Assembly: GCA_043824255.1 (NCBI GenBank) | Contig: JBDRTG010000007.1 | Location: 1,641 to 65,640, forward strand | Source of the DNA: a bacterium | Lineage (GTDB): Bacteria; JAHJDO01 | DNA: 64,000 nt | Reading direction: 5' to 3' | Part shown: positions 10,902 to 62,382 of the stretch, in pieces | How the letters are laid out: each line of letters begins with the position of its first letter | Position numbering within the stretch: the stretch's first letter is position 1 | Program-made: the position numbers and the translations under genes | Notes under the pieces: generated by a model | Seen by the model: only the letters and a program-made list of their open reading frames with translations | What the model was told of the DNA's origin: nothing | The model's database searches: none

Positions 10902-12014
10902 ATGGTCTATGGTTCATGGTCTGGTAGATATTGGAATGATTTTTTTTATAAAAATATAGTGTCTGATAATAAAAGACATAGATTATTAAAACTATTCCTT
11001 CTATTTATTTCATTTTTAGTAATTATCGTTCAAAACATACTGCTTTTTATGTATTCCATGAATCTTCTAAAGAAAAGGAAACTTTCCTCAAAAGTTATAA
11101 GTATTGGAGGCATAACATTGGGTGGGGTTGGTAAAACTCCTGTTGTAGAACTTCTAGTGAATATGCTTATTAAAAAAGGGAAAAAAGTTGCAGTATTGAG
11201 CAGAGGATACAGAAGAGTCGAAGATAGTGATATAAAACTTGTTTCTAATGGCAAAGAGATTTTGTGTAATGTAGAAGAAGCAGGAGATGAGCCATATCTT
11301 TTAGCAAAGAACCTGAAAAGCACAGTTGTTTTTGCTGGTAAGAATAGATATGAAACGGGTAAAATCGCAGAAGAGAAACTTAATATAGATACAGTAGTTT
11401 TAGATGACGGCTTTCAGCATTGGCGATTACATAGAGATATAAATATAGTGGTTATAAATGCTTCCAACCCTTTTGGGAATGGATATATTTTCCCAAGAGG
11501 GAATTTGCGTGAGCCATATAAGTGTTTAAAAAGAGCAGATTACTTTATAATAACAAAGACTGATATGATTAAGGATGCAGGGATAATTGAGAAAAGGCTT
11601 CTTGATATTAACAGTTCAGCGCAGGTTATAACCACTATCCATAAGCCTGTATGTTTAGAGCATGTTGCTGGGGAAGAACATCTGGATATTGAATGTATAA
11701 AAGGGGAAAAGGTAATAGCTCTTTCAAGTCTCGGAGATCCAGCATCTTTTGAGAACATATTAGAACATGTTGGAGCTAAAATAGTAGAACGGCTTAGATA
11801 TCCTGACCATTATTGGTACTCAAAAGAGGATATGTATAATATACAGGCAAGGCAAAAAACGCTCAATGCAAAATTTATCATTACTACGCAAAAAGACGCA
11901 GTAAGGTTGCAAAGGGTAGAGACGTATTATAATACGTCTCTACTGGTTCTCAGAATTGAAGTAGAGATTATTTCAGGAAGCGATAAATTGGAGAAGTTGA
12001 TTAATGCAATATAG
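10902..12014 (+). CDS. lpxK: Tetraacyldisaccharide 4'-kinase
   Basis: N-terminal membrane helix followed by VISIGGITLGGVGKTPVV. Confidence 0.85.
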   Translation: MVYGSWSGRYWNDFFYKNIVSDNKRHRLLKLFLLFISFLVIIVQNILLFMYSMNLLKKRKLSSKVISIGGITLGGVGKTPVVELLVNMLIKKGKKVAVLSRGYRRVEDSDIKLVSNGKEILCNVEEAGDEPYLLAKNLKSTVVFAGKNRYETGKIAEEKLNIDTVVLDDGFQHWRLHRDINIVVINASNPFGNGYIFPRGNLREPYKCLKRADYFIITKTDMIKDAGIIEKRLLDINSSAQVITTIHKPVCLEHVAGEEHLDIECIKGEKVIALSSLGDPASFENILEHVGAKIVERLRYPDHYWYSKEDMYNIQARQKTLNAKFIITTQKDAVRLQRVETYYNTSLLVLRIEVEIISGSDKLEKLINAI

Positions 12015-33785: not shown

Positions 33786-33864
33786 AAAAAACATTTGACA
33801 AGAGTATGGTAACTATGTAACAATTCGATAAATGAATTTGAAAGCGGGGGAGGTGAGTAATAAA

Positions 33865-34416
33865 ATGTTGAGGTTTATTAGAAGATACAAGGGGTTTACG
33901 CTTATTGAATTGCTGGTTGTTATAGCAATTATTGCTCTTCTTGCATCCATGCTTCTGCCAGCGCTGGCAAGAGCAAGAGAAATGGCTAGGAGAACAAAGT
34001 GTATAAGCAATCTGAAACAGATTGGTCTTGGTTGTCATATGTACGCTCAGGACTGGGATGACTATTTTCCTGATACCGGCGAGGCTAACACAAAGAACTT
34101 GGGATCAGATACGGTTGCTGCTGTCGCTGTAATGAATTTTTATCCCAATTATATTTCGTCTCTAGCGGTATTTGAGTGTCCGTCTGGCACAGAGAGGGTT
34201 GATAACGAAAGTGATATTGAGGATGGAGGCTATGTGTACAATGACGATCTGACAGAGATGGATAGCTCAGACACAGTGCTTGCGTGCGATACCGGTGTTG
34301 CGCATCACACAAATCCGAATGTTATTAATGTGCTGTATCTTGACGGGCATGTTGCAGCTGTAAAAGACGGAGCTGCGACCACAACGTCCGGCTATACCAC
34401 TGTAGGTGCCTATTAA
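33865..34416 (+). CDS. Prepilin-type N-terminal methylation-domain protein with DUF1559 / H-X9-DG C-terminus
   Basis: [31 protein letters not shown], then [18 protein letters not shown] preferred ATG 33865 (GGAGG upstream) over 33832. Confidence 0.85.
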
Positions 34417-39102: not shown

Positions 39103-40336
39103 ACTTGCTATTAATGGCGGTCCGCCAACGAGAACTAAATCTTTTCCCAGATGGCCTGTTTTTGGAGAAGAAGAAAAGAAAGCTGTTTGTGATGTTATTG
39201 ACAGCAGCAAGTGGTGGTATGGAGAAAAGATTGCAGAATTTGAGAAAAAATTTGCTGATTTTCAGGGAGCGAAATACGCTGTAACAATATGTAATGGGAC
39301 AATTGGTTTAGAAGTTGCACTCATTGTTTGCGGGATTGGAGCTGGAGATGAGGTTATTGTTCCTGCTTACACATTTATAGCAACAGCAAGTTCTGTTCTC
39401 AAAGCAAATGCTATACCTGTTTTTGCTGATATCTCTGAACAGACCTTATGTATCAGTCCTGAAAGCATAGAAAAACTAATTACCAAAAAGACCAAAGCTA
39501 TTATCCCTGTTCATATAGCAGGTCAGCCAGCTGATATGGACAGGATTATGGAAATCGCAGCCAAGCATAATTTGAAGGTCATAGAAGACGCTGCACAGGC
39601 ATGGAGTGCCGAGTGGCACAATAGGGGAGTAGGCGCTATTGGAGATATAGGAGAGTTCAGTTTTCAAGCCAGCAAGAATTTGAATGCCGGGGAAGGAGGA
39701 ATACTCTTAACAAATAATAGCGAACTTGCAGAAGCTGTCCGCTCATACACAAATTGCGGCAGAGGAAAGGGCAAGGCATGGTATGAGCACTATACTCTTG
39801 CAGGAAATTACCGTATGACAGAGTTTCAGGCAGCGCTTTTACTTGTTCAGCTTACTAGGTTTGAGGGACTTGAGAATATACGCAGGAAAAACGCTGAATA
39901 TCTGAATAAAAAACTTTTAGAGATAGACGGTATACAAACTATACATACGGATCCAAGAGTAACAAAAAGGCCTTATCATATTTATATATTCAAGTATCTT
40001 GAAAACAAGTTTTGCGGCATTCCAAGAGAGCTCTTCTTAAAGGCTCTTGAAGCGGAGGGGATTCCATGCAGGCCCGGTTATCCATTTCCATTATATGAAA
40101 ATCCACTGTTCCAGAAGAAAGGAAAAGGACCTGGCTTTTGTCCGTTATCCTGCCCATATTATGGAAAGGAAATAGACTTCTCCAATACTTCCTGTCTTGT
40201 TACAGAACGAATCTCTAAAAAAGAAGCAGTTTGGCTAAGACAGGAAATGCTTCTCGGAACTAAAGAGGATATGGACGATGTTGCCAGAGCAATTAAAAAA
40301 ATCAAAGAAAATGTTGAAGAGCTAAGAGGAGGATAA
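39092..40336 (+). CDS. DegT/DnrJ/EryC1/StrS-family PLP-dependent sugar aminotransferase; start codon non-canonical or lost
   Basis: Frame 2 reads (I)FTKLAINGGPPTRTKSFPRWPVFGEEEKKAV...NGTIGLEVAL...GDEVIVPAYTFIATA...IPVHIAGQPADMD...FSFQASKNLNAGEGG (PLP Lys). No ATG, GTG or TTG is in frame before 39536. ATC 39092 lies 8 nt after GGAGGA, and ATT 39110 is an alternative. Confidence 0.7.
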   Translation: MFTKLAINGGPPTRTKSFPRWPVFGEEEKKAVCDVIDSSKWWYGEKIAEFEKKFADFQGAKYAVTICNGTIGLEVALIVCGIGAGDEVIVPAYTFIATASSVLKANAIPVFADISEQTLCISPESIEKLITKKTKAIIPVHIAGQPADMDRIMEIAAKHNLKVIEDAAQAWSAEWHNRGVGAIGDIGEFSFQASKNLNAGEGGILLTNNSELAEAVRSYTNCGRGKGKAWYEHYTLAGNYRMTEFQAALLLVQLTRFEGLENIRRKNAEYLNKKLLEIDGIQTIHTDPRVTKRPYHIYIFKYLENKFCGIPRELFLKALEAEGIPCRPGYPFPLYENPLFQKKGKGPGFCPLSCPYYGKEIDFSNTSCLVTERISKKEAVWLRQEMLLGTKEDMDDVARAIKKIKENVEELRGG

Positions 40337-44075: not shown

Positions 44076-44276
44076 ATGTTGAAGTATAAATTAAATAAAA
44101 AAGTCATTAAAATATCATCTTTGGATGAAAATGACGAAAAGGAATATTGGAGTTCAAAAACAACGACAGACAGATTAAAGGCAGTGGAATTAAATAGGAG
44201 GATAGTATATGGATATGCCAATACTTCCCCAAGATTTCAGAGATTTTTTGAAATTGCTCAACTCAAAAAAAATTGA
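44076..44276 (+). CDS. Small protein, likely partner/antitoxin of the downstream nucleotidyltransferase
   Basis: The 66-aa protein reads ...DENDEKEYWSSKTTTDRLKAVELNRRIVYGY...PRFQRFFEI. I recall this pattern upstream of this nucleotidyltransferase type. It overlaps the next ORF by 68 nt. Confidence 0.4.
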   Translation: MLKYKLNKKVIKISSLDENDEKEYWSSKTTTDRLKAVELNRRIVYGYANTSPRFQRFFEIAQLKKN

Positions 44277-44658
44277 GTATTTGCTGATAGGTGGTTATGC
44301 AGTCGGTTATTATGGGTATCCGCGGGCAACGGCAGATATGGATATATGGATTGCTATTGCTAAAGAGAATGCTAAGAAGATAACAGAAGCAATAAAGGAA
44401 TTCGGCTTAAATGCTCCAGATTTATGCGAGGCTATTTTTCTTAAGCCTGGGAAAATCATCAGGATGGGATATCCTCCAATAAGAATAGAAGTGTTTACGG
44501 AAATATCGGGCGTAAATTTTGAGGAATGTTTTTCCAGACGTACTGAAACCAAAATTGATGGAATAAAAGTTAACCTCATATCGTATGAGGACCTTTTGAA
44601 AAATAAAAAAGCAAGTGGCAGATACAAAGATTTAAATGATTTAGAAAATTTAAAATAG
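44209..44658 (+). CDS. Nucleotidyltransferase-fold protein (minimal NTase, TA-like)
   Basis: FLKLLNSKKIEYLLIGGYAVGYYGYPRATADMDIWIA shows the GG.A...G..R.T.D.D NTase signature. 149 aa. Confidence 0.6.
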   Translation: MDMPILPQDFRDFLKLLNSKKIEYLLIGGYAVGYYGYPRATADMDIWIAIAKENAKKITEAIKEFGLNAPDLCEAIFLKPGKIIRMGYPPIRIEVFTEISGVNFEECFSRRTETKIDGIKVNLISYEDLLKNKKASGRYKDLNDLENLK

Positions 44659-46999: not shown

Positions 47000-48465
47000 G
47001 TTGTCACACCCCAATACCAAATTTCGAATTTGCACGAGAGGAAATAGAAGATGCAGTACGCAATAGCAGGCTTCTATCTGTGGAAATTGAACCCAGTCTG
47101 CGTTGTAATTTCCACTGTCCATATTGTTATATACCGGAGAATTCTTCTCTTGAAAACGAGTTGACCGTAGAGGAAATCTGCGATGTTATTTTACAGGCGC
47201 AGGATCTTGGAGCAAAAAAAATTATTATTCTCGGCGGAGAGCCGATGATATATCCGCATATTATGGAAATAATTAAGTTTATCAGAACGCATCATCTTAA
47301 CGTGGAGATATTTACCAATGGTTCTAATATTACTGCTGATATAGCGAAACAGCTTTTTGACTATGGAGTAAATGTGGTTCTAAAGATGAACACGTTTAAT
47401 GAGCATAATCAGGATATGCTTGCCGGGAAAAAAGGAGCGTTCAAGATCATTCAGGAAGCATTTCACAATCTAAAGCAAGCAAGACGTCCTTCCGGAGAAA
47501 CATTTCTGGCAGTCAGTACCGTCATATGCTCTCAGAATATTGATGAGTTGGTAGATATGTGGCAAAAGCTGAGGGATCAGAATATTATCCCGTATTTTGA
47601 GATGATTACTCCGCAGGGAAATATTAGACAAAACGGATGGTTAAATATTGAACCTCAAAAGATACATGATATTTTTTGTAAAATTGCCGAAATTGACCGT
47701 ACTCACTATGGATACTTCTGGGAGCCTCAGCCTCCTCTGATAGGGAATAGATGTCTGCGGCACCAGTTTTCATGTCTTGTTACTTCTCAAGGATATGTTA
47801 CGCCGTGTGTTGGGGTAACTATACCGGTTGGAAGCATACGAAAGCAAAAGCTTCGAGATATTATAAAAGATAGTGAGGTTATTCAGGATCTTAGAAATTA
47901 TCATGATACAATGAAGGCTCCTTGCCGTGAATGCGAAAAATCAAACGAATGTTACGGATGCCGCGGAGCAGCATACCAGCTGACAGGCGATTATCTGGCT
48001 TCTGACCCTATGTGCTGGAAGAATGTTGATAAACAGGATAAAATTGCCTGTTTACCGATTGCAGTTGAAGAACTAATTCCGCAGAAATCGCCAATGCGAG
48101 TCATTGATACACTGATGAAAGTTGCTGAGCGCACAGCAGATGTAACCGTAACATTATCACAGGATATGCTATTTATTGACGAAAGCGGTTTGCTTGATGA
48201 GGCTGCGTATCTTGAAATGATCGCGCAGGCAATAGCAGCGCTGAGCGGATTTAAACATATGGGTGCGTCTAAACCGGCGCCGGGAGGATTCCTGCTTGGA
48301 GCGAAAAAACTTGAGATATTAGGCAAAGCGCATGTTGGAGACACATTAAATATATCATTCTATAAATATGCAAGGTACGGCGGTTTTGGCATTGTTAAAG
48401 GAACCGTATCACAGGACAACCATGTGCTCGCCAGAGGAGAGGTAAAGATCTGGCATGAGACATGA
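46996..48465 (+). CDS. Fusion protein: radical SAM + SPASM-like domain / C-terminal hotdog dehydratase (ApeI/FabZ-like)
   Basis: The rSAM cluster is SLRCNFHCPYCY, with GGEP. Cys-rich SPASM-like segments are CLRHQFSCLV..C and CRECEKSNECYGCRG. From about residue 350 comes a hotdog domain (LIPQKSPMRVIDTL...YLEMIAQAIAAL...GGFLLGAKKLEILG...VGDTL). A GTGA overlap joins it to the ligase gene. Confidence 0.8.
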   Translation: MSCHTPIPNFEFAREEIEDAVRNSRLLSVEIEPSLRCNFHCPYCYIPENSSLENELTVEEICDVILQAQDLGAKKIIILGGEPMIYPHIMEIIKFIRTHHLNVEIFTNGSNITADIAKQLFDYGVNVVLKMNTFNEHNQDMLAGKKGAFKIIQEAFHNLKQARRPSGETFLAVSTVICSQNIDELVDMWQKLRDQNIIPYFEMITPQGNIRQNGWLNIEPQKIHDIFCKIAEIDRTHYGYFWEPQPPLIGNRCLRHQFSCLVTSQGYVTPCVGVTIPVGSIRKQKLRDIIKDSEVIQDLRNYHDTMKAPCRECEKSNECYGCRGAAYQLTGDYLASDPMCWKNVDKQDKIACLPIAVEELIPQKSPMRVIDTLMKVAERTADVTVTLSQDMLFIDESGLLDEAAYLEMIAQAIAALSGFKHMGASKPAPGGFLLGAKKLEILGKAHVGDTLNISFYKYARYGGFGIVKGTVSQDNHVLARGEVKIWHET

Positions 48466-48773
48466 ATAAAATGGTTTTTCTTTACATTACCAATGAATCA
48501 GCCAAAGAGGCAAAAAAAATTGCCAGGCATTTGCTTGAAAAACGTATGATTGGCTGTGCGAATATTTTCCCAGTCAGTGCTATGTATTGGTGGAAAGGCA
48601 AAATTGCCGATGAAACGGAGGTTGTGCTTATTGCTAAAACAACGAAGGAGAATTATCAAAAAGTTCGGGATGAAATTGCCAGAATCCATCCTTTTGACAC
48701 TCCTTGCATAATCAAGCTGGACGCTGATCCCAATGAAAAATATTTGCAATGGATCAAAAGTGAACTCAAATAG
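48462..48773 (+). CDS. cutA: CutA divalent-cation tolerance protein
   Basis: A 103-aa protein with VFLYITNES...AKKIARHLLEKRMIGCANIFP..AMYWWKGKI...EVVLIAKT. An ATGA overlap joins it to the preceding gene. Confidence 0.85.
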   Translation: MNKMVFLYITNESAKEAKKIARHLLEKRMIGCANIFPVSAMYWWKGKIADETEVVLIAKTTKENYQKVRDEIARIHPFDTPCIIKLDADPNEKYLQWIKSELK

Positions 48774-53156: not shown

Positions 53157-53528
53157 ATGAAATATCTACAAAGACAAAAAGGATTGTTAAGGAGGAGCAT
53201 ATATATTGGTTTGAGCATTGCTATATTAAGTTTAAGTTATACCTCCTCTTGCATGGCAGAACCAGAAATGCTTGTACGCGCGTCTGTACGTGCTGAGTCA
53301 AACGTGAACGCTATCAATGAGAAACAGAAGAGCATAGATGTTGAGAAATACCGTGTGCAAAAAAAACAGCTTTTAACACCAAATGAGATTAATTCTCTAG
53401 AAATAAAAGAAAAGGATAACTGTAGGCTTCTGCAATTGCGTGCTGGTGATGATTCAACGAACATGATGCTTATAGTTATTATGATTATGATTGCGTGCGT
53501 AGCCAGTATTGCGGCAGGAAATCCCTAG
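53157..53528 (+). CDS. Small exported/membrane protein, unknown function
   Basis: N-terminal signal-like helix (IYIGLSIAILSLSYTSSC) and a C-terminal hydrophobic tail (MMLIVIMIMIACVASIAAG). A good SD (AAAGGAGG) lies 8 nt upstream. Confidence 0.4.
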   Translation: MKYLQRQKGLLRRSIYIGLSIAILSLSYTSSCMAEPEMLVRASVRAESNVNAINEKQKSIDVEKYRVQKKQLLTPNEINSLEIKEKDNCRLLQLRAGDDSTNMMLIVIMIMIACVASIAAGNP

Positions 53529-53570
53529 TGTCCAATAAAAAATGGCTGGAAATGTCAAGGGGAAGTAAGA

Positions 53571-54176
53571 ATTTTAAAGAATTATCCATTTTGTAGAAAG
53601 AAATATCTGCTGTTTTTACTATTCTCTATATTCTTGATCAGTTCAAGTGGCTGTGGTGTCCGCCGTTTTACAGGACTAAATTCTCCAACAACATATCTGA
53701 TTAACGGTACCTCACATATAAGACAAGAAAAAAATCAGTGTGGGTTAGCATGCCTTTCTATGGTCTTTAGATATTGGGGCAGAAACGATATTGATTTATC
53801 TCCAATTGAATCTTCGTATGCGCTTAAAGCAGAAAATTTAAAAAAATTTGCTGAACAGCAAGGATTTTTTGCTTTTGTGTATAGCGGTTCTCCTAAAGAC
53901 TTAAAAGAACAACTGGATAAAGGGAGACCAATCATTGTTATGACTAAATATATCTTTAAACTGCCACCAATGCGAGAATTACAACTTGCAAAAAAAATAG
54001 TTGGAGAGGGGAGCAATCATTATTCGGTAGTTATAGGATATGACGATACCAAGCGCATATACATCATTTCAGATCCTGCTAGAAAAACTCCTATAACAAT
54101 AGATAGATTTCTATTTGAAGAAAAGTGGGCTGAATGTGACTATCTAACGATATTAGTAGTCCCTATGATAAAATAA
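53571..54176 (+). CDS. Papain-like Cys peptidase, C39-like domain, probable lipoprotein; likely non-canonical ATT start
   Basis: NQCGLACLSMVFRYWG (catalytic Cys) and NHYSVVIGYDD (His). In-frame upstream codons encode the signal peptide RKKYLLFLLFSIFLISSSGC. The first canonical start (TTG 53634) lies inside that signal peptide. ATT 53571 sits 7 nt after AGGGGA. Confidence 0.55.
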   Translation: MLKNYPFCRKKYLLFLLFSIFLISSSGCGVRRFTGLNSPTTYLINGTSHIRQEKNQCGLACLSMVFRYWGRNDIDLSPIESSYALKAENLKKFAEQQGFFAFVYSGSPKDLKEQLDKGRPIIVMTKYIFKLPPMRELQLAKKIVGEGSNHYSVVIGYDDTKRIYIISDPARKTPITIDRFLFEEKWAECDYLTILVVPMIK

Positions 54177-55924: not shown

Positions 55925-55945
55925 CCCGAAAGCATTCGGGATTTT
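55925..55945 (+). terminator. Possible weak Rho-independent terminator
   Basis: CCCGAA-AGCA-TTCGGG followed by ATTTT, 25 nt after the stop at 55900. Confidence 0.45.
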
Positions 55946-55947
55946 GG

Positions 55948-55977
55948 GTTGTCATTTAGGTTGTCATTTAGTATAAT
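55948..55977 (+). promoter_or_regulatory. Near-consensus sigma70 promoter overlapped by a perfect 12-nt tandem repeat; would give leaderless fic mRNA
   Basis: TTGTCA (55949-55954), a 17-nt spacer, then TATAAT (55972-55977). GTTGTCATTTAG occurs twice in tandem (55948-55959 and 55960-55971). The fic ATG at 55984 is 6 nt after the -10 box, with no SD. Confidence 0.6.
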
Positions 55978-55983
55978 TAATAC

Positions 55984-57039
55984 ATGATATTTAAACCAAA
56001 ATATACAATAACAGATAAGATACTTAATAATATCTCCCAAATTGCGGCTGGAAAGGAGATTGTTGAACATTCCAGACTAATTCCTAAGTGGGAGCTAAAG
56101 TTAAAAAAAGAGGCTCGCCTTCATAATGCTCATTCTTCTACAAGTATTGAGGGGAACAGGCTAACACTTGAGCAGGTAGGCATGCTGTCAGAAAATAAGC
56201 AGATTATTGGCTCAGTCAAGGATAAACAGGAGGTTCTAAATTATCTTCATGCATTGGATGCTATACCTGAATACGCAGGCAAAAAGGCGATAGATGTTAA
56301 ACTATTTTTAAATATCCATAAAACAATTACCAAGGGAACTCTTGAGAATCCTGAGGATTGCGGTGTTTTTAGAAATAGACAAGTTTTTGTAGGAAGAAGA
56401 ATATTTGACGGGACACAATTTAGGGAAGTTGTGGAATATATGCCTCCTCGTACCAGGGATGTTCTTCGTTTAGTAAAAGAATTCTTAGATTGGTTGAATG
56501 CTGCTAAAATAAGCAGTATTCAACCTGTTATTTTAGCTGGGATTGTGCACTATGAAGTAGCCAGAATTCATCCGTTTATTGATGGCAATGGTAGAACAGC
56601 AAGGTTGTTAGCATCTCTTGTTCTTTATAAAACAGGCTTTGATCATAGAAGATTTTTTGCGCTTGATGATTACTATGATGCAGACAGATACTCATATTAT
56701 GCCGCATTAAAAACAGCCCAAAAAAGCAAAGGGGATATTACAAAGTGGCTTGAATATTTCACTGATGGTGTTTTGTATTCAACGAATAAAGTAAAAGAGG
56801 TTATCGTTAAACTTGATTTTTTACCAAAAGTGAATAGTGCTGAACAATTAGAATTAACGTCAAGACAGATAGAAATTTTAGAAAGGATTAAAGTTAAGGG
56901 CAGGATTACTAATAAAGAACTAAGAGCAAATTTTAACATATCACGACAAGCAATGCTGAAAGAAATTTCAAAACTCATAGATGCTGATATAATTGAGCTT
57001 GCTGGAAAAGGCAGGGGAGCATATTATAGAATGCACTAA
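55984..57039 (+). CDS. Fic-family protein (AMPylase-type) with C-terminal wHTH
   Basis: Core motif HPFIDGNGRTARLL, 351 aa. The C-terminal LTSRQIEILERIKVKGRITNKELRANFNISRQAMLKEI is HTH-like. Confidence 0.9.
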   Translation: MIFKPKYTITDKILNNISQIAAGKEIVEHSRLIPKWELKLKKEARLHNAHSSTSIEGNRLTLEQVGMLSENKQIIGSVKDKQEVLNYLHALDAIPEYAGKKAIDVKLFLNIHKTITKGTLENPEDCGVFRNRQVFVGRRIFDGTQFREVVEYMPPRTRDVLRLVKEFLDWLNAAKISSIQPVILAGIVHYEVARIHPFIDGNGRTARLLASLVLYKTGFDHRRFFALDDYYDADRYSYYAALKTAQKSKGDITKWLEYFTDGVLYSTNKVKEVIVKLDFLPKVNSAEQLELTSRQIEILERIKVKGRITNKELRANFNISRQAMLKEISKLIDADIIELAGKGRGAYYRMH

Positions 57040-57051
57040 GGTTATTTTAAT

Positions 57052-58299
57052 ATGAAAATAAAACTAATATATCCCACATGGCCGAAACTAATGGATCAGA
57101 CGGAATTTAATTTGCCGCCTCATGGTCCGGCGTGTTTTGCTGCGGCGCTGAGTGATGATATTGAAATCTCTTTTTGTGATGAAAATGTTGAGAAACTTGA
57201 TTTTTCTGAAGATGCAGACTTGATTGTGCTCTCAGTTATGCTGACATGCCAGATGCCCCGCGCATGGGAAATTAGCGATTGGTATCGAGCTCATGGTAAG
57301 AAGGTGGTGTTTGGCGGCATTGCAACAATGCTTCATGCGGAAGAGACAATGTCTCACGCTGATAGTGTTTTTTTAGGAGAGGCTGAAGGCAGGATTGATA
57401 AGGTTATTGATGATTTTAAGAAAGGACGTATGGAAAAGATGTATGATTTTTTCCATGATTTTCCGGATATGAACATAATTGGCACTGCAAGACGCAGCAT
57501 TCTTAAGCGTGAATTATATAATTTCCGCGGTGTGCAGATGGTTGATCTGATACATGCGTCCCGAGGGTGCAAGTTTAATTGTTTTCCGTGCTGCACGCCG
57601 TATTTGGGAGGGCGCAAATTCAGGCCGCGCCCTGTTGATGCAGTGGTGAGGGAGCTGGAAAGCATTGACAATAACCGCATGTTTTTTGTTGATAATTCTA
57701 TGGCGCAGAACGATGAATGGGAGAGAGAACTGTTTAAGGCAATTGCTCCGTTAAAAAAGAAATGGATATCTCATCCCATAAAGGATGATGACGAAATATT
57801 GGATCTAGCCGCTAAAGCAGGATGTTGGTATGTATATCAGGCAATAATAGATACCTCAGATCATATCCGCAGAAGAGTCAAGCGGCTGCAGGAACATGGC
57901 ATTGGAGTTGAAGGGACAGTTATTCTCGGATTGGATTATCATGATGAAGATTATATAAAGCGATTAGTTGATTTTCTTCTTGAGATAAATCTTGACCTTG
58001 CCGAATTTACTATCCTTACTCCATTTCCTCATGCACCGATCAGAGCCCAGCTGGAAAAAGAAAATAGGATCCTTCATAACAACTGGATCCAGTACACAAC
58101 AGGAGAGGTTGTATTTAAACCGGCAAAAATGACTATAAACTCATTGCAAAGCATGTACCACTATGCATGGGAAAAATTTTACTCTGACTGCAGCAGGGAA
58201 ATAAAGATGGCAAAACTGTTTCTTAAAGTTATTGAAAAAGAAAAGAAGGACGGAACCTATAAGAGAGCCAGGTTAAGGGCTGGTCGCGCGTGGTCATGA
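57052..58299 (+). CDS. B12-binding-domain radical SAM enzyme (class B)
   Basis: N-terminal Rossmann-like B12 domain (DLIVLSVMLT...VVFGGIATM), followed by the rSAM cluster ASRGCKFNCFPC. Confidence 0.85.
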   Translation: MKIKLIYPTWPKLMDQTEFNLPPHGPACFAAALSDDIEISFCDENVEKLDFSEDADLIVLSVMLTCQMPRAWEISDWYRAHGKKVVFGGIATMLHAEETMSHADSVFLGEAEGRIDKVIDDFKKGRMEKMYDFFHDFPDMNIIGTARRSILKRELYNFRGVQMVDLIHASRGCKFNCFPCCTPYLGGRKFRPRPVDAVVRELESIDNNRMFFVDNSMAQNDEWERELFKAIAPLKKKWISHPIKDDDEILDLAAKAGCWYVYQAIIDTSDHIRRRVKRLQEHGIGVEGTVILGLDYHDEDYIKRLVDFLLEINLDLAEFTILTPFPHAPIRAQLEKENRILHNNWIQYTTGEVVFKPAKMTINSLQSMYHYAWEKFYSDCSREIKMAKLFLKVIEKEKKDGTYKRARLRAGRAWS

Positions 58300-59648
58300 G
58301 AATTCTGCTGATTGCTTCTAATACTGCCAGTACTCCATGTCCTATATATCCGTTAGGGGTGAGCATGATTGCAGCAGCTTTGCGTAACGGCGGACATGAG
58401 GTATGTCAGTTTGATTTTCTTCAGAGCAATAAGTCCATGGATGCGCTTTGTGAGACAATCAGGAACAATGCTCCAAATATTATCGGTGTATCAATTCGCA
58501 ATATTGATAATGTGAACTACTTAAGTGAACAGCGCTATATTGATGTTGCGAAGGATATTGTACAAACGATTCACGCACAAACCAGCGTGCCAGTAGTGCT
58601 TGGCGGCGCAGGATTTTCTATTATGCCGGAAGCAATCCTGCGTGAGGTTGGTGCTGATTATGGAATTGTTGGAGAAGGAGAGGCACTAATGCTTGAATTT
58701 GTTGCAAATGCTGAGAAAGGGGAGTATCCCAAAAAACGTTGTATACGGGCTATATCTAAGCTGAGTGGGGAAAAAATCCCCTCTGCATATTATGATCCAA
58801 AGATTATGGAGTTTTATCTGAAAAGAGGGAACATTGGATCTGTGCAGACAAAGCGGGGATGTACACATAAATGCGTGTACTGCTCGTATCCTATTTTGGA
58901 AGGCACAAGTATTCGCTGCAGGGATCCGAAGGCAGTGGTTGATGATATTCAGATGCTGACTGATACGCACAAGGCAAAATATATCTTCTTTACTGATTCG
59001 GTTTTTAATGATGACCAAAAACATTATCTGAACGTAGTTCGTGAAATGGCAAAAAGAGGGGTGTCTATCCCTTGGACTGCGTTTTTCAAACCGGAAAAGC
59101 TTGATGATGAAATTATAGCGCTGATGAAACAGACCGGGCTGAAAGCAGCAGAGCTTGGATCTGATGCGCCGGCTAATACAACACTTCGCAAGCTTGGCAA
59201 GTCATTCTTATTTAAGGACATTATTGAGTGTAATGACTCCTTTGTCCGCTCTGGTATTGCCACGGCGCATTATTATATGTTTGGTTGTCCGGGGGAGACA
59301 CGGGAAACAGTGCTTGAGGGAATAGAAAATATCAAAAGTCTGAGAAAGGCAGTATCTTTTATCTTTATGGGGATACGGATTCTTCCTGGTACTGGTCTTG
59401 AGCACATAGCGCTTAAAGAAGGGCTTCTTTCCAATGGTCAGGATTTACTGAAGTCTGTTTATTATATTTCTCCAAACATTGATAAACAGTGGCTAAAGGA
59501 GACATTAACTAAAGCATTCTCCGGCATTAAACATTGTATTTTCCCTCCTGATGCAGGGGACACTACTTTACAGTTTCTTCACAAACTTGGATATTCAGGC
59601 TCTATGTGGGATATGCTTATTGCCGGGAATAAAAAACTAGATGAGTAA
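58296..59648 (+). CDS. B12-binding-domain radical SAM enzyme (class B), second paralogue
   Basis: MRILLIASN...PLGVSMIAAALRNGGHEV...IIGVSIRN...VVLGGAGFS, then TKRGCTHKCVYCSYP. I took ATG 58296, which forms an ATGA overlap. Confidence 0.85.
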   Translation: MRILLIASNTASTPCPIYPLGVSMIAAALRNGGHEVCQFDFLQSNKSMDALCETIRNNAPNIIGVSIRNIDNVNYLSEQRYIDVAKDIVQTIHAQTSVPVVLGGAGFSIMPEAILREVGADYGIVGEGEALMLEFVANAEKGEYPKKRCIRAISKLSGEKIPSAYYDPKIMEFYLKRGNIGSVQTKRGCTHKCVYCSYPILEGTSIRCRDPKAVVDDIQMLTDTHKAKYIFFTDSVFNDDQKHYLNVVREMAKRGVSIPWTAFFKPEKLDDEIIALMKQTGLKAAELGSDAPANTTLRKLGKSFLFKDIIECNDSFVRSGIATAHYYMFGCPGETRETVLEGIENIKSLRKAVSFIFMGIRILPGTGLEHIALKEGLLSNGQDLLKSVYYISPNIDKQWLKETLTKAFSGIKHCIFPPDAGDTTLQFLHKLGYSGSMWDMLIAGNKKLDE

Positions 59649-60810
59649 TAATTCTTTCTCTACAGATCATATCTGGTGTGTCATCCCTGTATTTAATAAC
59701 AAGGATACTGTGAAAAATGTTGCTTTATCCTGCAGAGCTTATTTGCAGCATATACTTGTTGTTGATGACGGCAGTACTGATATTAATGTATCTGCTTTAT
59801 TTGTTGACACTGATATTATTGTGCTCAGGCACGAGAAAAATCTTGGAAAAGGCAAGGCAATTCTTACTGCCCTAAAGTATATTAAAGCTCAAGGCGGGCG
59901 CTTTATGATTACAATTGATGCAGACGGACAGCACTATCCGCAGGATTTGGAGAAGTTCATTCCTTTGCTCCAGAAAGATGAAACAAGTATTGTTATTGGG
60001 TGCAGAAAACTTCATGGGAAACATGTTCCCCGTAAGAGTCATTTTGGAAGAAAGATTGCTAATTTCTGGCTGCGTGTAGAAACAGGTGTTTCAATTGATG
60101 ATTGCCAGAGCGGGTTTCGCGCATATCCAGTGCAGTACCTTTTACAAATGAAGTTAACAGGCTCTCATTATGATTTTGAAACCGAAGTTCTGGCAAGGGC
60201 AGTCTGGGCTGGCTTGCGTCTAAAGACAATTGAGATTGATGCATGGTATCCTGAACCTCAATTTCGCATCTCCAGCTTTAAGCCACTTGTGGACAATATG
60301 CGTATTTCCTGTATGCATACCAGATTAGTAGGCAGGTGCCTTTTACCGCTTCCGCACCGGAAACTGGTTCATGAAGCTGCGAAAAAAATAGACCTGAGCA
60401 TACTGCGTCATCCTGTTAAATTACTGAAGATGCTGCTAAAAGAGAATGCAAATCCAGTTGGGTTAGCTATAGCAGCAGGTGTGGGAATCTTTCTTGCTGT
60501 ATTGCCGCTTATCTCAATTCATACATTGGCAATTATTTATGTGACAGCGCGCTTGCATTTAAATAAAGTGATGGCTGTAACCATACAGCATTTATGCATA
60601 CCGCCTCTTGTTCCGGCAGTCTGCATTGAACTGGGGTATTATATGCGGCATGGTCACTGGTTAACAGAGGTTTCCATGGATGTTATTTTTAAGCAATTCC
60701 CCGACAGATTGTTTGAATGGCTGCTCGGCTCACTTATAGTTGCGCCTGTATTGGCAATCATTATAGGAACAAGTGTATTTTTTACAGCAAAGGCATTACA
60801 GAAAAACTGA
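59641..60810 (+). CDS. Family-2 glycosyltransferase fused to a C-terminal DUF2062-like membrane domain
   Basis: VIPVFNNKDTV...VVDDGSTD...ITIDADGQH, followed by 3-4 TM helices (GLAIAAGVGIFLAVLPL...). Confidence 0.8.
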   Translation: MSNNSFSTDHIWCVIPVFNNKDTVKNVALSCRAYLQHILVVDDGSTDINVSALFVDTDIIVLRHEKNLGKGKAILTALKYIKAQGGRFMITIDADGQHYPQDLEKFIPLLQKDETSIVIGCRKLHGKHVPRKSHFGRKIANFWLRVETGVSIDDCQSGFRAYPVQYLLQMKLTGSHYDFETEVLARAVWAGLRLKTIEIDAWYPEPQFRISSFKPLVDNMRISCMHTRLVGRCLLPLPHRKLVHEAAKKIDLSILRHPVKLLKMLLKENANPVGLAIAAGVGIFLAVLPLISIHTLAIIYVTARLHLNKVMAVTIQHLCIPPLVPAVCIELGYYMRHGHWLTEVSMDVIFKQFPDRLFEWLLGSLIVAPVLAIIIGTSVFFTAKALQKN

Positions 60811-62382
60811 ACCATTTATGACGTCTTTCAGTTCATCGTAAGCCGCTATTTTCATGTCTTTCATGACAATGAGACTGGCATTCGCACCGGCCTTTACAGC
60901 CATTGGAACGCCCCCGCCATATTCCGCACAATGACCTCCCAACAATAAATTCTTCACAGGCGTTTTGTAATGTGCTACACCGGCTCTGATATTTCTTCCA
61001 GTTGGTTTAACCCCTGAAATGCTTCCCTTGGTGTTGCCCGTATATCGCCAATATGTTACAGGTGTTGCAATCTCCATCACCTCTATGTGCTCCCTCAGCC
61101 CGGGAGCGAAAGTTTTCTCAATCCGGTCCAGCAGGATGTCGGCAAACTTTCTTTTCAATGCTTTGTAGGTTTCGCCTCTTGCCAGACCCTCGCCGGTTCT
61201 CCAATTGTCTTCGTAATCGAGATATGCCGGACAATGTATCATAACGGTTCCCTTACCTTCCGGTGCCAGAGAAGGATCACGAACTGAAGGCGCGATGACG
61301 ATCATGATCGTGCGATGTGGATCACCACTCATGTGATCTTCACGTGATACATCGCTCCTGGTGAGATTCAATACTTCTTCTCCGAACCCCAAAGAAGAAG
61401 CATCGCAATCCAGTCCCAGAAATATGGTGAAGCTGGAATGATAAATATCGGCATTATGCAGTGCTTTTCGCATCCGTGCCGGAATGCAGCCCTCCAGCAG
61501 CATCTTTTCATAAAGCATCTGTACGTCGCAGGCTGCAATCACGTATCGAGCGCTCAGGGAACTTCCGTCTGCCAGTAATACACCGGTCGCTTCTTTTCTG
61601 TCGTTCAACAGCACTCTTTCCACGTGCTGGTTCAGCAATACTTTCGACCCGGCAGACCTGATTCTGTCACACAACCATAAAGCCAGTGTGCGACTTCCTC
61701 CTTTGGGACAAGTTTGAAAATTTCCGGCGAATGCCCAAGCGATAGGCACAATAACGGACATAAAGGATTCTTGACTGCAGAATATCTTTTGAGCACCCTC
61801 CGTACTGAAATAGCGGCGCAGCCCTTTCTCGACAGGGCTCCTCACGTGTTTGAAGACAGGAATTGCCCAAAACAGCATTTGCAAGCTGCGAATAGCTCTT
61901 TCAAAGAATGGCATGGTCTCTTTCGCCATTGTCCTGCTGTTCAGAACATTCAGCCGCCGACCCAGTCTTTCCCCATCCTTGAAAAAAGATCTGATACCGC
62001 TCTCATCATCAGGAAAGTCCTTGATAAGACAATCCTGTAACTCGATAGGATTGGAACTCAGCAAATAGTCGAACGAATCGCTTTTATATCTGTGTATGCG
62101 AGTCAACGGCGCGCAGGTTGGAAACTCGCCACCCAGATAACGCCAGATGTTGTAGACGAATCCGCTGGGACCGCATTGATTGAGCCATTGGATGGAAGTG
62201 TCGAACTGAAAGCCCTGCCGCTGAAAACCTGCCAGGTATCCCCCTGGCTGCGGCTGAGTTTCAAGAACTACTGTTTGAAGACCCGCCCTTGAGAGAAGCC
62301 CTGCTGCGGTGAGTCCACCTGCCCCTGCCCCGATGACTACAACATCACACCTGTCAGGGACTTGATTATTCGCCTGTATCAT
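60796..62382 (-). CDS. FAD-dependent oxidoreductase, phytoene-desaturase (CrtI) superfamily; compositionally atypical
   Basis: DVVVIGAGAGGLTAAGLLSRAGLQTVVLETQPQPGG and C-terminal LLLGGHCAEYGGG. Spot GC on four lines is 50-57%. Seven spurious ORFs of 60 aa or more overlap it in other frames. Confidence 0.8.
   Translation of the reverse strand: MIQANNQVPDRCDVVVIGAGAGGLTAAGLLSRAGLQTVVLETQPQPGGYLAGFQRQGFQFDTSIQWLNQCGPSGFVYNIWRYLGGEFPTCAPLTRIHRYKSDSFDYLLSSNPIELQDCLIKDFPDDESGIRSFFKDGERLGRRLNVLNSRTMAKETMPFFERAIRSLQMLFWAIPVFKHVRSPVEKGLRRYFSTEGAQKIFCSQESFMSVIVPIAWAFAGNFQTCPKGGSRTLALWLCDRIRSAGSKVLLNQHVERVLLNDRKEATGVLLADGSSLSARYVIAACDVQMLYEKMLLEGCIPARMRKALHNADIYHSSFTIFLGLDCDASSLGFGEEVLNLTRSDVSREDHMSGDPHRTIMIVIAPSVRDPSLAPEGKGTVMIHCPAYLDYEDNWRTGEGLARGETYKALKRKFADILLDRIEKTFAPGLREHIEVMEIATPVTYWRYTGNTKGSISGVKPTGRNIRAGVAHYKTPVKNLLLGGHCAEYGGGVPMAVKAGANASLIVMKDMKIAAYDELKDVINGSVFL

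Follow-up and report, generated by a model that had tools for sequence, protein, structure and literature searches.

Kuenenia stuttgartiensis (kuste3335-3352) and Desulfotalea psychrophila provided the first examples, in 2009 (Rattray 2009), of a type of gene cluster that genome-mining software labels "ladderane" and that is spread over many anaerobic phyla. Expression of such "ladderane" clusters has been reported from an anoxic basin, for Desulfobacterota and Omnitrophota among other phyla. Here, we analyze two adjacent radical S-adenosylmethionine (SAM) genes, open reading frame (ORF) A and ORF B, from a cluster of this type in a 64,000-nt stretch of bacterial DNA (contig JBDRTG010000007.1 of assembly GCA_043824255.1, positions 1,641 to 65,640; hereafter "the window"). 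With a probability of roughly 55%, we read them as two different, co-translated radical SAM tailoring enzymes that act in sequence on the chain built by the ketosynthase (KS) and acyl carrier protein (ACP) of this ladderane-type cluster. The gene pair is no new kind of system; what we add is a motif comparison with the methyltransferase TsrM, a delimitation of the ORF A family, cases in which the genes are split or fused, and an insertion hot spot upstream of ORF A.

The window shares its gene vocabulary with the Kuenenia clusters (kuste3335-3352, and Cluster I, kuste3603-3608) and with that of Desulfotalea (DP1853, DP1855). The Kuenenia sequences in the supplement of Javidpour 2016 (PMC4790861) comprise the first ~128 residues only, and the comparisons made with them are therefore N-terminal. 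On these fragments, kuste3342 best matches ORF B (41% identity), kuste3343 the radical SAM protein with a SPASM domain encoded in the window (44%), kuste3344 its ligase (41%), kuste3335 its family 2 glycosyltransferase (GT2; 31%), and kuste3336 its CrtI-like protein (33%). The arrangement differs, however, in that the ORF B homolog of Kuenenia adjoins the SPASM enzyme and has no A-type neighbor. Two B12 enzymes of the anammox "Cluster I" set, kuste3608 and kuste2803, best match ORF A at 31% and 28%, far below the identities found among ORF A orthologs. D. psychrophila carries homologs (DP1853 and DP1855), yet it contains no ladderanes, only acyclic C31:8 and C31:9 hydrocarbons. The hydrazine synthase domain (HZS_alpha) was not found in the 87%-complete genome that holds the window, and by this marker of the anammox ladderane pathway the host therefore does not qualify; neither was it found in 401 genomes of a third phylum (the home of genome G011, whose locus is titled "Planctomycetia"). 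In a paper on membrane-spanning-lipid synthases (PMC13159169), no link to B12 enzymes was found.

Both genes lie on the forward strand. By translation, the product of ORF A (57052-58299) is a radical SAM protein of 415 aa whose N-terminal domain is of the B12-binding type, while ORF B (58296-59648), which ends in a TAA stop codon at 59646-59648, encodes a 450-aa B12-binding radical SAM protein that the NCBIfam scan assigns to TIGR04072 (rSAM_ladder_B12). The original prediction, made from the letters of the window alone, had placed two radical SAM genes at these coordinates and coupled them by an ATGA; direct reading of the sequence confirmed this, with the ATG of ORF B overlapping the TGA of ORF A at 58296-58299 (+), an arrangement of translational coupling. 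We placed the start of ORF B at this ATG rather than at an alternative GTG (58290), because all homologs begin with MR/KI/VLLI. At the other end, the ATG of a gene for a GT2-DUF2062 glycosyltransferase (59641-60810, +) overlaps the end of ORF B by 8 nt (ATGAGTAA); considering both overlaps, ORF A, ORF B and the GT2-DUF2062 gene form one translationally coupled chain. The cysteine motifs of the radical SAM cluster are present as had been claimed: CKFNCFPC at residues 173-180 of ORF A (C173-x3-C177-x2-C180, followed directly by a fourth cysteine, Cys181; codons at 57568-57594, +), and CTHKCVYC at residues 189-196 of ORF B (C189-x3-C193-x2-C196; codons at 58860-58883, +), whose three cysteines are invariant in the homolog alignment. 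The predicted domains were borne out as well, both proteins scoring above the Pfam thresholds for B12-binding (PF02310) and Radical_SAM (PF04055), with 67.1 and 49.6 bits for ORF B, and 33.2 and 32.0 bits for ORF A, whose B12-binding score is marginal (cut-off 32.1).

We compared 20 related loci, which belong to metagenome-assembled genomes (MAGs) titled Desulfobacterales, Omnitrophota, Planctomycetia, Kiritimatiellia, Bacteroidales and Methanosarcinales. Wherever upstream DNA was available, an ORF A homolog lay directly 5' of the ORF B homolog (19/19 loci), and with the identical gene pair found in the same order in several phyla, a chance pairing is excluded. The gene order of the whole cluster is kept in the 12 long loci, which again come from several phyla. 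For the phylum of the window, our genome collection comprises no more than nine species, all from a single genus and with genomes of 1.1-2.7 Mb; the candidate lineage of the source organism is very sparsely sampled. The two genes occur in the same six of these nine genomes and are adjacent in each. Among 301 genomes of Desulfobacterota, all 19 with a TIGR04072 match of at least 565 bits carry an ORF A ortholog (at least 59% identity), which is adjacent in 18. In the sample from the third phylum (401 small genomes, including loci titled Omnitrophota), 14 genomes hold both genes, always adjacent, while three hold A only and three B only, these last being mostly draft MAGs. A second TIGR04072 copy in this sample (G011:C2:404512-405798, 550 bits) has one in-frame TGA, and may be a pseudogene or contain a recoded codon.

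For ORF B, the family assignment is firm. It scores 634.7 bits against TIGR04072 (cut-off 360) over profile positions 1-442 of 443, and 634.3 bits when the comparison is repeated as a genome-wide profile search. TIGR04072 matches elsewhere in the genome reach 26-158 bits, and eight paralogous B12-binding radical SAM proteins that were scanned directly reach 82-156 bits; given these low scores, the assignment of ORF B is specific. The original prediction had pointed to a curated family called "lipid biosynthesis B12-binding/radical SAM protein", defined from clusters of this type. A family of exactly this name exists and includes ORF B, but it does not include ORF A (49.6 bits). ORF B shares with the family its whole profile, its domain order, and a location in a KS/ACP lipid cluster; a full-text literature search found no paper naming its identifier. 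Its matches are two-tiered: those of the lower tier (360-426 bits) often adjoin a protein only 33-36% identical to ORF A, at loci of a different context in which further B12-binding radical SAM genes are present. The second-best curated family of ORF B is that of BzaD (TIGR04385; 204.9 bits, below the cut-off of 450), and the TsrM-type family (TIGR04428) is matched with 150 bits, below its cut-off of 500.

The closest solved relative of ORF B is TsrM, the tryptophan 2-C-methyltransferase of thiostrepton biosynthesis (PDB 6WTE, 6WTF). It is the best PDB match to the fold of the AlphaFold2 model of ORF B (predicted local distance difference test (pLDDT) score 82), with a template modeling (TM) score of 0.83-0.84 and an E-value of ~1e-27, the next match being MgmA with a TM score of 0.66; it is also the best solved relative by sequence in a profile search (151.6 bits). 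In TsrM, the arginine of a Gly65-x-Thr67-x-Arg69 motif sits under the cobalt, and Glu273 occupies the place of SAM as ligand of the unique iron, such that TsrM operates without a radical (PMC9204698). In the HMMER alignment to 6WTE, the first motif is matched by Gly64-Val-Ser66-Ile-Arg68 of ORF B (codons at 58485-58499, +), of which Gly64, Ser66 and Arg68 are invariant among 15 sequences, and TsrM Asp271-Ser272-Glu273 by Asp234-Ser235-Val236 (codons at 58995-59003, +), invariant in the same 15 sequences. In other words, the 2 proteins have in common the cobalt-side Gly-x-Ser/Thr-x-Arg and the Asp-Ser of the "GGE" motif, whereas ORF B is ~120 residues shorter, carries Val236 for Glu273, and is found in a lipid rather than a thiopeptide context. 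By this alignment, the predicted cobalamin environment of ORF B is of the TsrM type, minus the glutamate that blocks the cluster.

We reasoned that ORF B is probably a cobalamin-dependent C-methyltransferase, since its nearest characterized relatives, TsrM and BzaD, methylate sp2 carbons and the arginine of TsrM is kept. It is probably also radical-competent: with Val236 replacing the SAM-blocking glutamate, ORF B would, unlike TsrM, probably still accommodate SAM at the cluster and generate a 5'-deoxyadenosyl radical, so that the non-radical mechanism of TsrM need not apply. BzaD, of anaerobic benzimidazole biosynthesis, is a B12-binding radical SAM enzyme that is thought to be TsrM-like and is predicted to be an sp2 C-methylase, but has itself not been characterized in vitro; in contrast to BzaD, ORF B stays below the cut-off of that family and has no bza neighbors. 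The genome encodes CobS and CbiB, and can therefore complete or remodel corrinoids; a PduO-type adenosyltransferase was not found in it.

ORF A reached no curated family cut-off in the NCBIfam scan. Its best match is TIGR04013 (63.6 bits, cut-off 251); the match to TIGR04072 (cut-off 360) covers residues 82-230 only, and further weak matches, which include HpnJ (48 bits), AprD4 (34 bits) and BchE (32 bits), are all far below their cut-offs (for the AprD4 family NF033070, 33.9 bits against a cut-off of 500). The identity between ORF A and ORF B amounts to 24% over 200 residues, with a profile-profile probability of 97%; judged by sequence, they are distant members of one superfamily and not recent duplicates. 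In the AlphaFold2 model of ORF A (pLDDT 82), the best PDB fold is AprD4, a radical SAM 1,2-diol dehydratase of apramycin biosynthesis (PDB 6FD2; TM score 0.74), followed by MgmA and TsrM. By sequence, ORF A is far from all solved structures (at most 35 bits), and AprD4 is again the best match. That 35-bit profile match covers the radical SAM core alone, however, and ORF A differs from AprD4 in keeping the Gly-Gly/Gly-Glu motifs of the cobalamin type and in its unrelated gene context. The original prediction had presented the pair as two enzymes of one kind, both of class B (B12-binding). The tandem arrangement and the domains of both proteins hold, while the likeness does not, as ORF A falls outside TIGR04072, is distant from ORF B in sequence, and has an AprD4-like fold. 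Neither protein reached the cut-off for BchE, HpnJ/HpnR, TsrM-type enzymes, BzaD, PhpK, AprD4 or any other characterized family, and the surroundings are a conserved lipid cluster with KS, ACP, ketoreductase (KR) and dehydratase genes; a placement of both proteins in characterized non-lipid families with unrelated context, which the original prediction had named as the outcome that would speak against it, is thus not what we observed.

The family around ORF A is as tight as it is nameless. More than 5,900 proteins (clustered at 90% identity) match it with an E-value of at most 1e-10, and the 120 best of these homologs, found in Omnitrophota, Desulfobacterales, Nitrospirota/Thermodesulfovibrionia and Brevinematales, share 73-92% of their residues with ORF A. 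A cultured carrier, Desulfosarcina sp. BuS5, encodes a homolog of 77% identity (WP_027352603.1). Across phyla, orthologs are 65-92% identical, and in every related locus the conservation of ORF A exceeds that of all other cluster proteins, with 65-78% identity to other lineages versus 36-72% for its neighbors. Among 1.84 billion representatives at 50% identity, the group is reduced to fragments and 2-3 full-length entries, at 60%, 49% and 46% identity, and all other full-length proteins are at most 38% identical. His24, Ser61, Cys66, Gly88-Gly89, Gly109-Glu110, Cys173, Cys177, Cys180 and Cys258 are invariant in 121/121 homologs, and Cys181 is kept in 120/121. Of these residues, His24 belongs to a Pro-Pro-His-Gly loop at the position taken by Pro-Leu-Gly in most class B enzymes, while Ser61, Gly88-Gly89 and Gly109-Glu110 match motifs of the cobalamin-binding domain; the best fold is nonetheless that of AprD4. 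In public records, homologs are named "radical SAM protein", "cobalamin-dependent protein" or "hypothetical protein" only. We therefore regard ORF A as a separate, exceptionally conserved family left unnamed in public databases. Knowing what either enzyme does would put a name to thousands of database entries and bear on the ladderane problem.

The lipid cluster around the pair lies on a single strand at about 40467-63493 (+), as delimited by NCBIfam and Pfam scans and by synteny in the 12 long loci. It begins with a KR, a CrtI-like flavoenzyme, a KS, an ACP, a PlsC-type acyltransferase, a PaaK/FlxY-like ligase and the radical SAM/SPASM protein, continues with a LolA-like protein, an RND/MMPL exporter, a 222-aa protein, a hotdog dehydratase, a KS and a 183-aa protein, and ends with ORF A, ORF B, GT2-DUF2062 and an LpxL-type acyltransferase; it contains two CrtI-like genes. 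The description of the pair as late genes of the cluster holds loosely, in that they lie between the KS and 183-aa genes on one side and the GT2 and acyltransferase genes on the other, and the acyl or polyene chain proposed along with it is a presumed substrate. The cluster is a conserved aryl-polyene-like, ladderane-type lipid cluster of anaerobes. With aryl-polyene and flexirubin clusters (apeA-R; NCBIfam Flx models) it shares an ApeI-like hotdog protein, an RND exporter, a GT2 and acyltransferases, but it differs from them in its three radical SAM and two CrtI-like genes. Canonical aryl-polyene and flexirubin clusters are not known to carry radical SAM genes, and their methyltransferase is of class I. 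The flexirubin models are narrowly missed (KR, FlxB, 292 of 340 bits; ligase, FlxY, 467 of 520 bits; LolA-like protein, LolA2_flexi, 113 of 125 bits), and the cluster is therefore a relative, not a member, of the aryl-polyene/flexirubin group.

Three related genomes depart from this arrangement next to ORF B. In G219, the two genes are 210 kb apart: A still follows a KS and a 222-aa gene, and B is found downstream of a GT2 and an acyltransferase; it appears that A keeps company with the genes that build the chain, and B with those that assemble the lipid. In the sister species G001, a 28-nt deletion removes the stop codon of ORF B and the start codon of the GT2 gene, yielding an in-frame fusion of 830 aa (locus L029, G001:C171, 7988-10480). 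Locus L010, whose ORF B is 85% identical, lacks GT2-DUF2062, and an LpxL-type acyltransferase follows 427 nt after ORF B (11341-11768); the glycosyltransferase is therefore not universally retained beside the pair. An 877-aa frame around the ORF B homolog of G112 was also considered as a fusion, and was rejected as an artefact of the long spurious frames of a high-GC genome.

In the reading that we prefer, that of two different tailoring enzymes acting one after the other, ORF A would act on the carrier-bound chain beside the KS and 183-aa proteins, and ORF B would carry out a cobalamin-dependent C-methylation at a late, membrane-proximal stage, alongside the GT2 and the acyltransferase. Candidate chemistries for ORF A are the methylation of an sp3 carbon, or a radical step without methylation, such as those of AprD4, HpnJ or BchE. 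Several points weigh against this reading. No member of either family has been characterized, and the methyltransferase call for ORF B is drawn by analogy from its relatives. ORF A may not bind cobalamin at all, considering that AprD4, its best fold, is placed outside the B12-dependent group by a 2026 review and that its own Pfam B12-binding score is marginal. Reviews of 2022 (PMC9204698) and 2026 count the "ladderane" B12 enzyme among those whose transformation is still unknown, and when kuste3342 and kuste3343 were expressed in Escherichia coli, the protein was undetectable. The fusion in G001 comes from one draft assembly and may be a true fusion or an assembly error. Finally, a search of the 87%-complete genome for aromatic-starter enzymes revealed no TAL/HAL, UbiC or Rv2949c-type lyase. 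Methylation of an aromatic ring, a further candidate target of ORF B, was marked down because of this missing lyase.

The most serious competitor concerns ORF A, which would be a cobalamin-independent radical SAM enzyme of the AprD4 type, performing a dehydratase-like or other redox-neutral step with a relic N-terminal domain, such that only ORF B uses B12. AprD4 is its top match by both fold and sequence, its B12-binding score barely passes the Pfam cut-off, and AprD4 is treated as unrelated to the true B12-dependent enzymes in review; still, a relic domain sits poorly with the complete retention of Gly88-Gly89, Gly109-Glu110, Ser61 and the "His-loop" His24 in all 121 homologs, and with the alignment of the same motif set to the cobalamin enzyme MgmA. 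We consider this possible, with the odds against it. Alternatively, the two proteins could form one obligate heteromeric enzyme with a single catalytic subunit, the other serving as a scaffold, a cobalamin carrier, or a dock for the substrate or ACP. In favor of such a complex are the ATGA coupling, the almost strict adjacency and co-occurrence of the genes, and how strongly ORF A is conserved. We nevertheless think it improbable: both proteins keep the invariant CxxxCxxC and a strand matching the SAM-binding "GGE" motif, the genes stand 210 kb apart in G219, and in Kuenenia the ORF B homolog is found beside the SPASM enzyme without an A-type neighbor.

It has also been proposed for ladderanes from the outset that such enzymes carry out non-methylating C-C chemistry, in this case a cyclization, cross-linking or rearrangement by the pair on a polyunsaturated chain made with the two CrtI-like flavoenzymes. 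The name of TIGR04072, given for ladderane clusters, agrees with this proposal, as do the matches between Kuenenia fragments and proteins of the window, the two CrtI-like genes, and the weak curated matches of ORF A, which, apart from the uncharacterized TIGR04013 and TIGR04072, include HpnJ, AprD4 and BchE, none of them a methylase. These matches of ORF A are far below cut-off, however, the closest characterized relatives of ORF B are methylases, D. psychrophila has the homologs without having ladderanes, and this genome lacks a detectable hydrazine synthase domain, which together make the proposal unlikely in our view. A bolder version, in which the pair, the two CrtI-like flavoenzymes and the SPASM enzyme forge new C-C bonds (rings or cross-links) in the polyunsaturated chain, giving an unseen carbocyclic envelope lipid in many non-anammox anaerobes, is a long shot. 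If it were true, the invariant "His-loop" His24 and the three additional invariant cysteines would mark ORF A as a B12 or Fe-S radical enzyme of a new mechanistic kind, with kuste3608 as a relative.

The site upstream of ORF A is an insertion site within the genus. In the window, a fic gene (Fic with a winged helix-turn-helix domain; 55984-57039) lies between the 183-aa gene and ORF A, preceded, within 55925-55977, by a promoter-like site with a near-consensus TTGTCA-17-TATAAT (55949-55977); no terminator-like site was found between fic and ORF A. A Fic gene occupies the same site in locus L011, AcrB and an outer-membrane factor are found there in G001, and in L010 there is a 26-nt spacer only. 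The Fic protein of L011 is 96% identical to that of the window, versus 82-90% for the flanking radical SAM genes, which suggests recent mobility.

Other genes in and near the cluster are outside the conserved order in most or all related loci. They are located at 44209-44658, 48462-48773, 53157-54176 and 60796-62382 (- strand), and comprise a DUF2204 nucleotidyltransferase, CutA, a 123-aa ORF with a C39-like peptidase, and a convergent second amine-oxidase/CrtI-like gene. The end of this last gene overlaps the GT2 gene by 15 nt, and the gene is also present in the sister species G001 (96% identity) and, at another place on the contig, in L013 (53%). Just upstream of the cluster lies a 266-aa ORF for a DegT/PseC-type aminotransferase (39536-40336), whose alignment to the profile begins only at about position 135; it looks N-terminally truncated, and is possibly a pseudogene or has a miscalled start. 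The window further encodes a DUF1559/N-methyl prepilin-type protein (33832-34416).

The 2.0-Mb genome encodes 22 B12-binding radical SAM ORFs (20 besides A and B), an unusual load for so small a genome. Eighteen of these are on the minus strand of one 150-kb stretch (contig C47, ~179,000-330,000, outside the window), and C18, 10,377-13,223, is a further location. None of the eight paralogs that were scanned reached any curated cut-off, and one of them (902 aa) is fused to a glycosyltransferase domain of the PEP-CTERM/XrtA type. The load as a whole may point to a heavily C-methylated polysaccharide or peptide.

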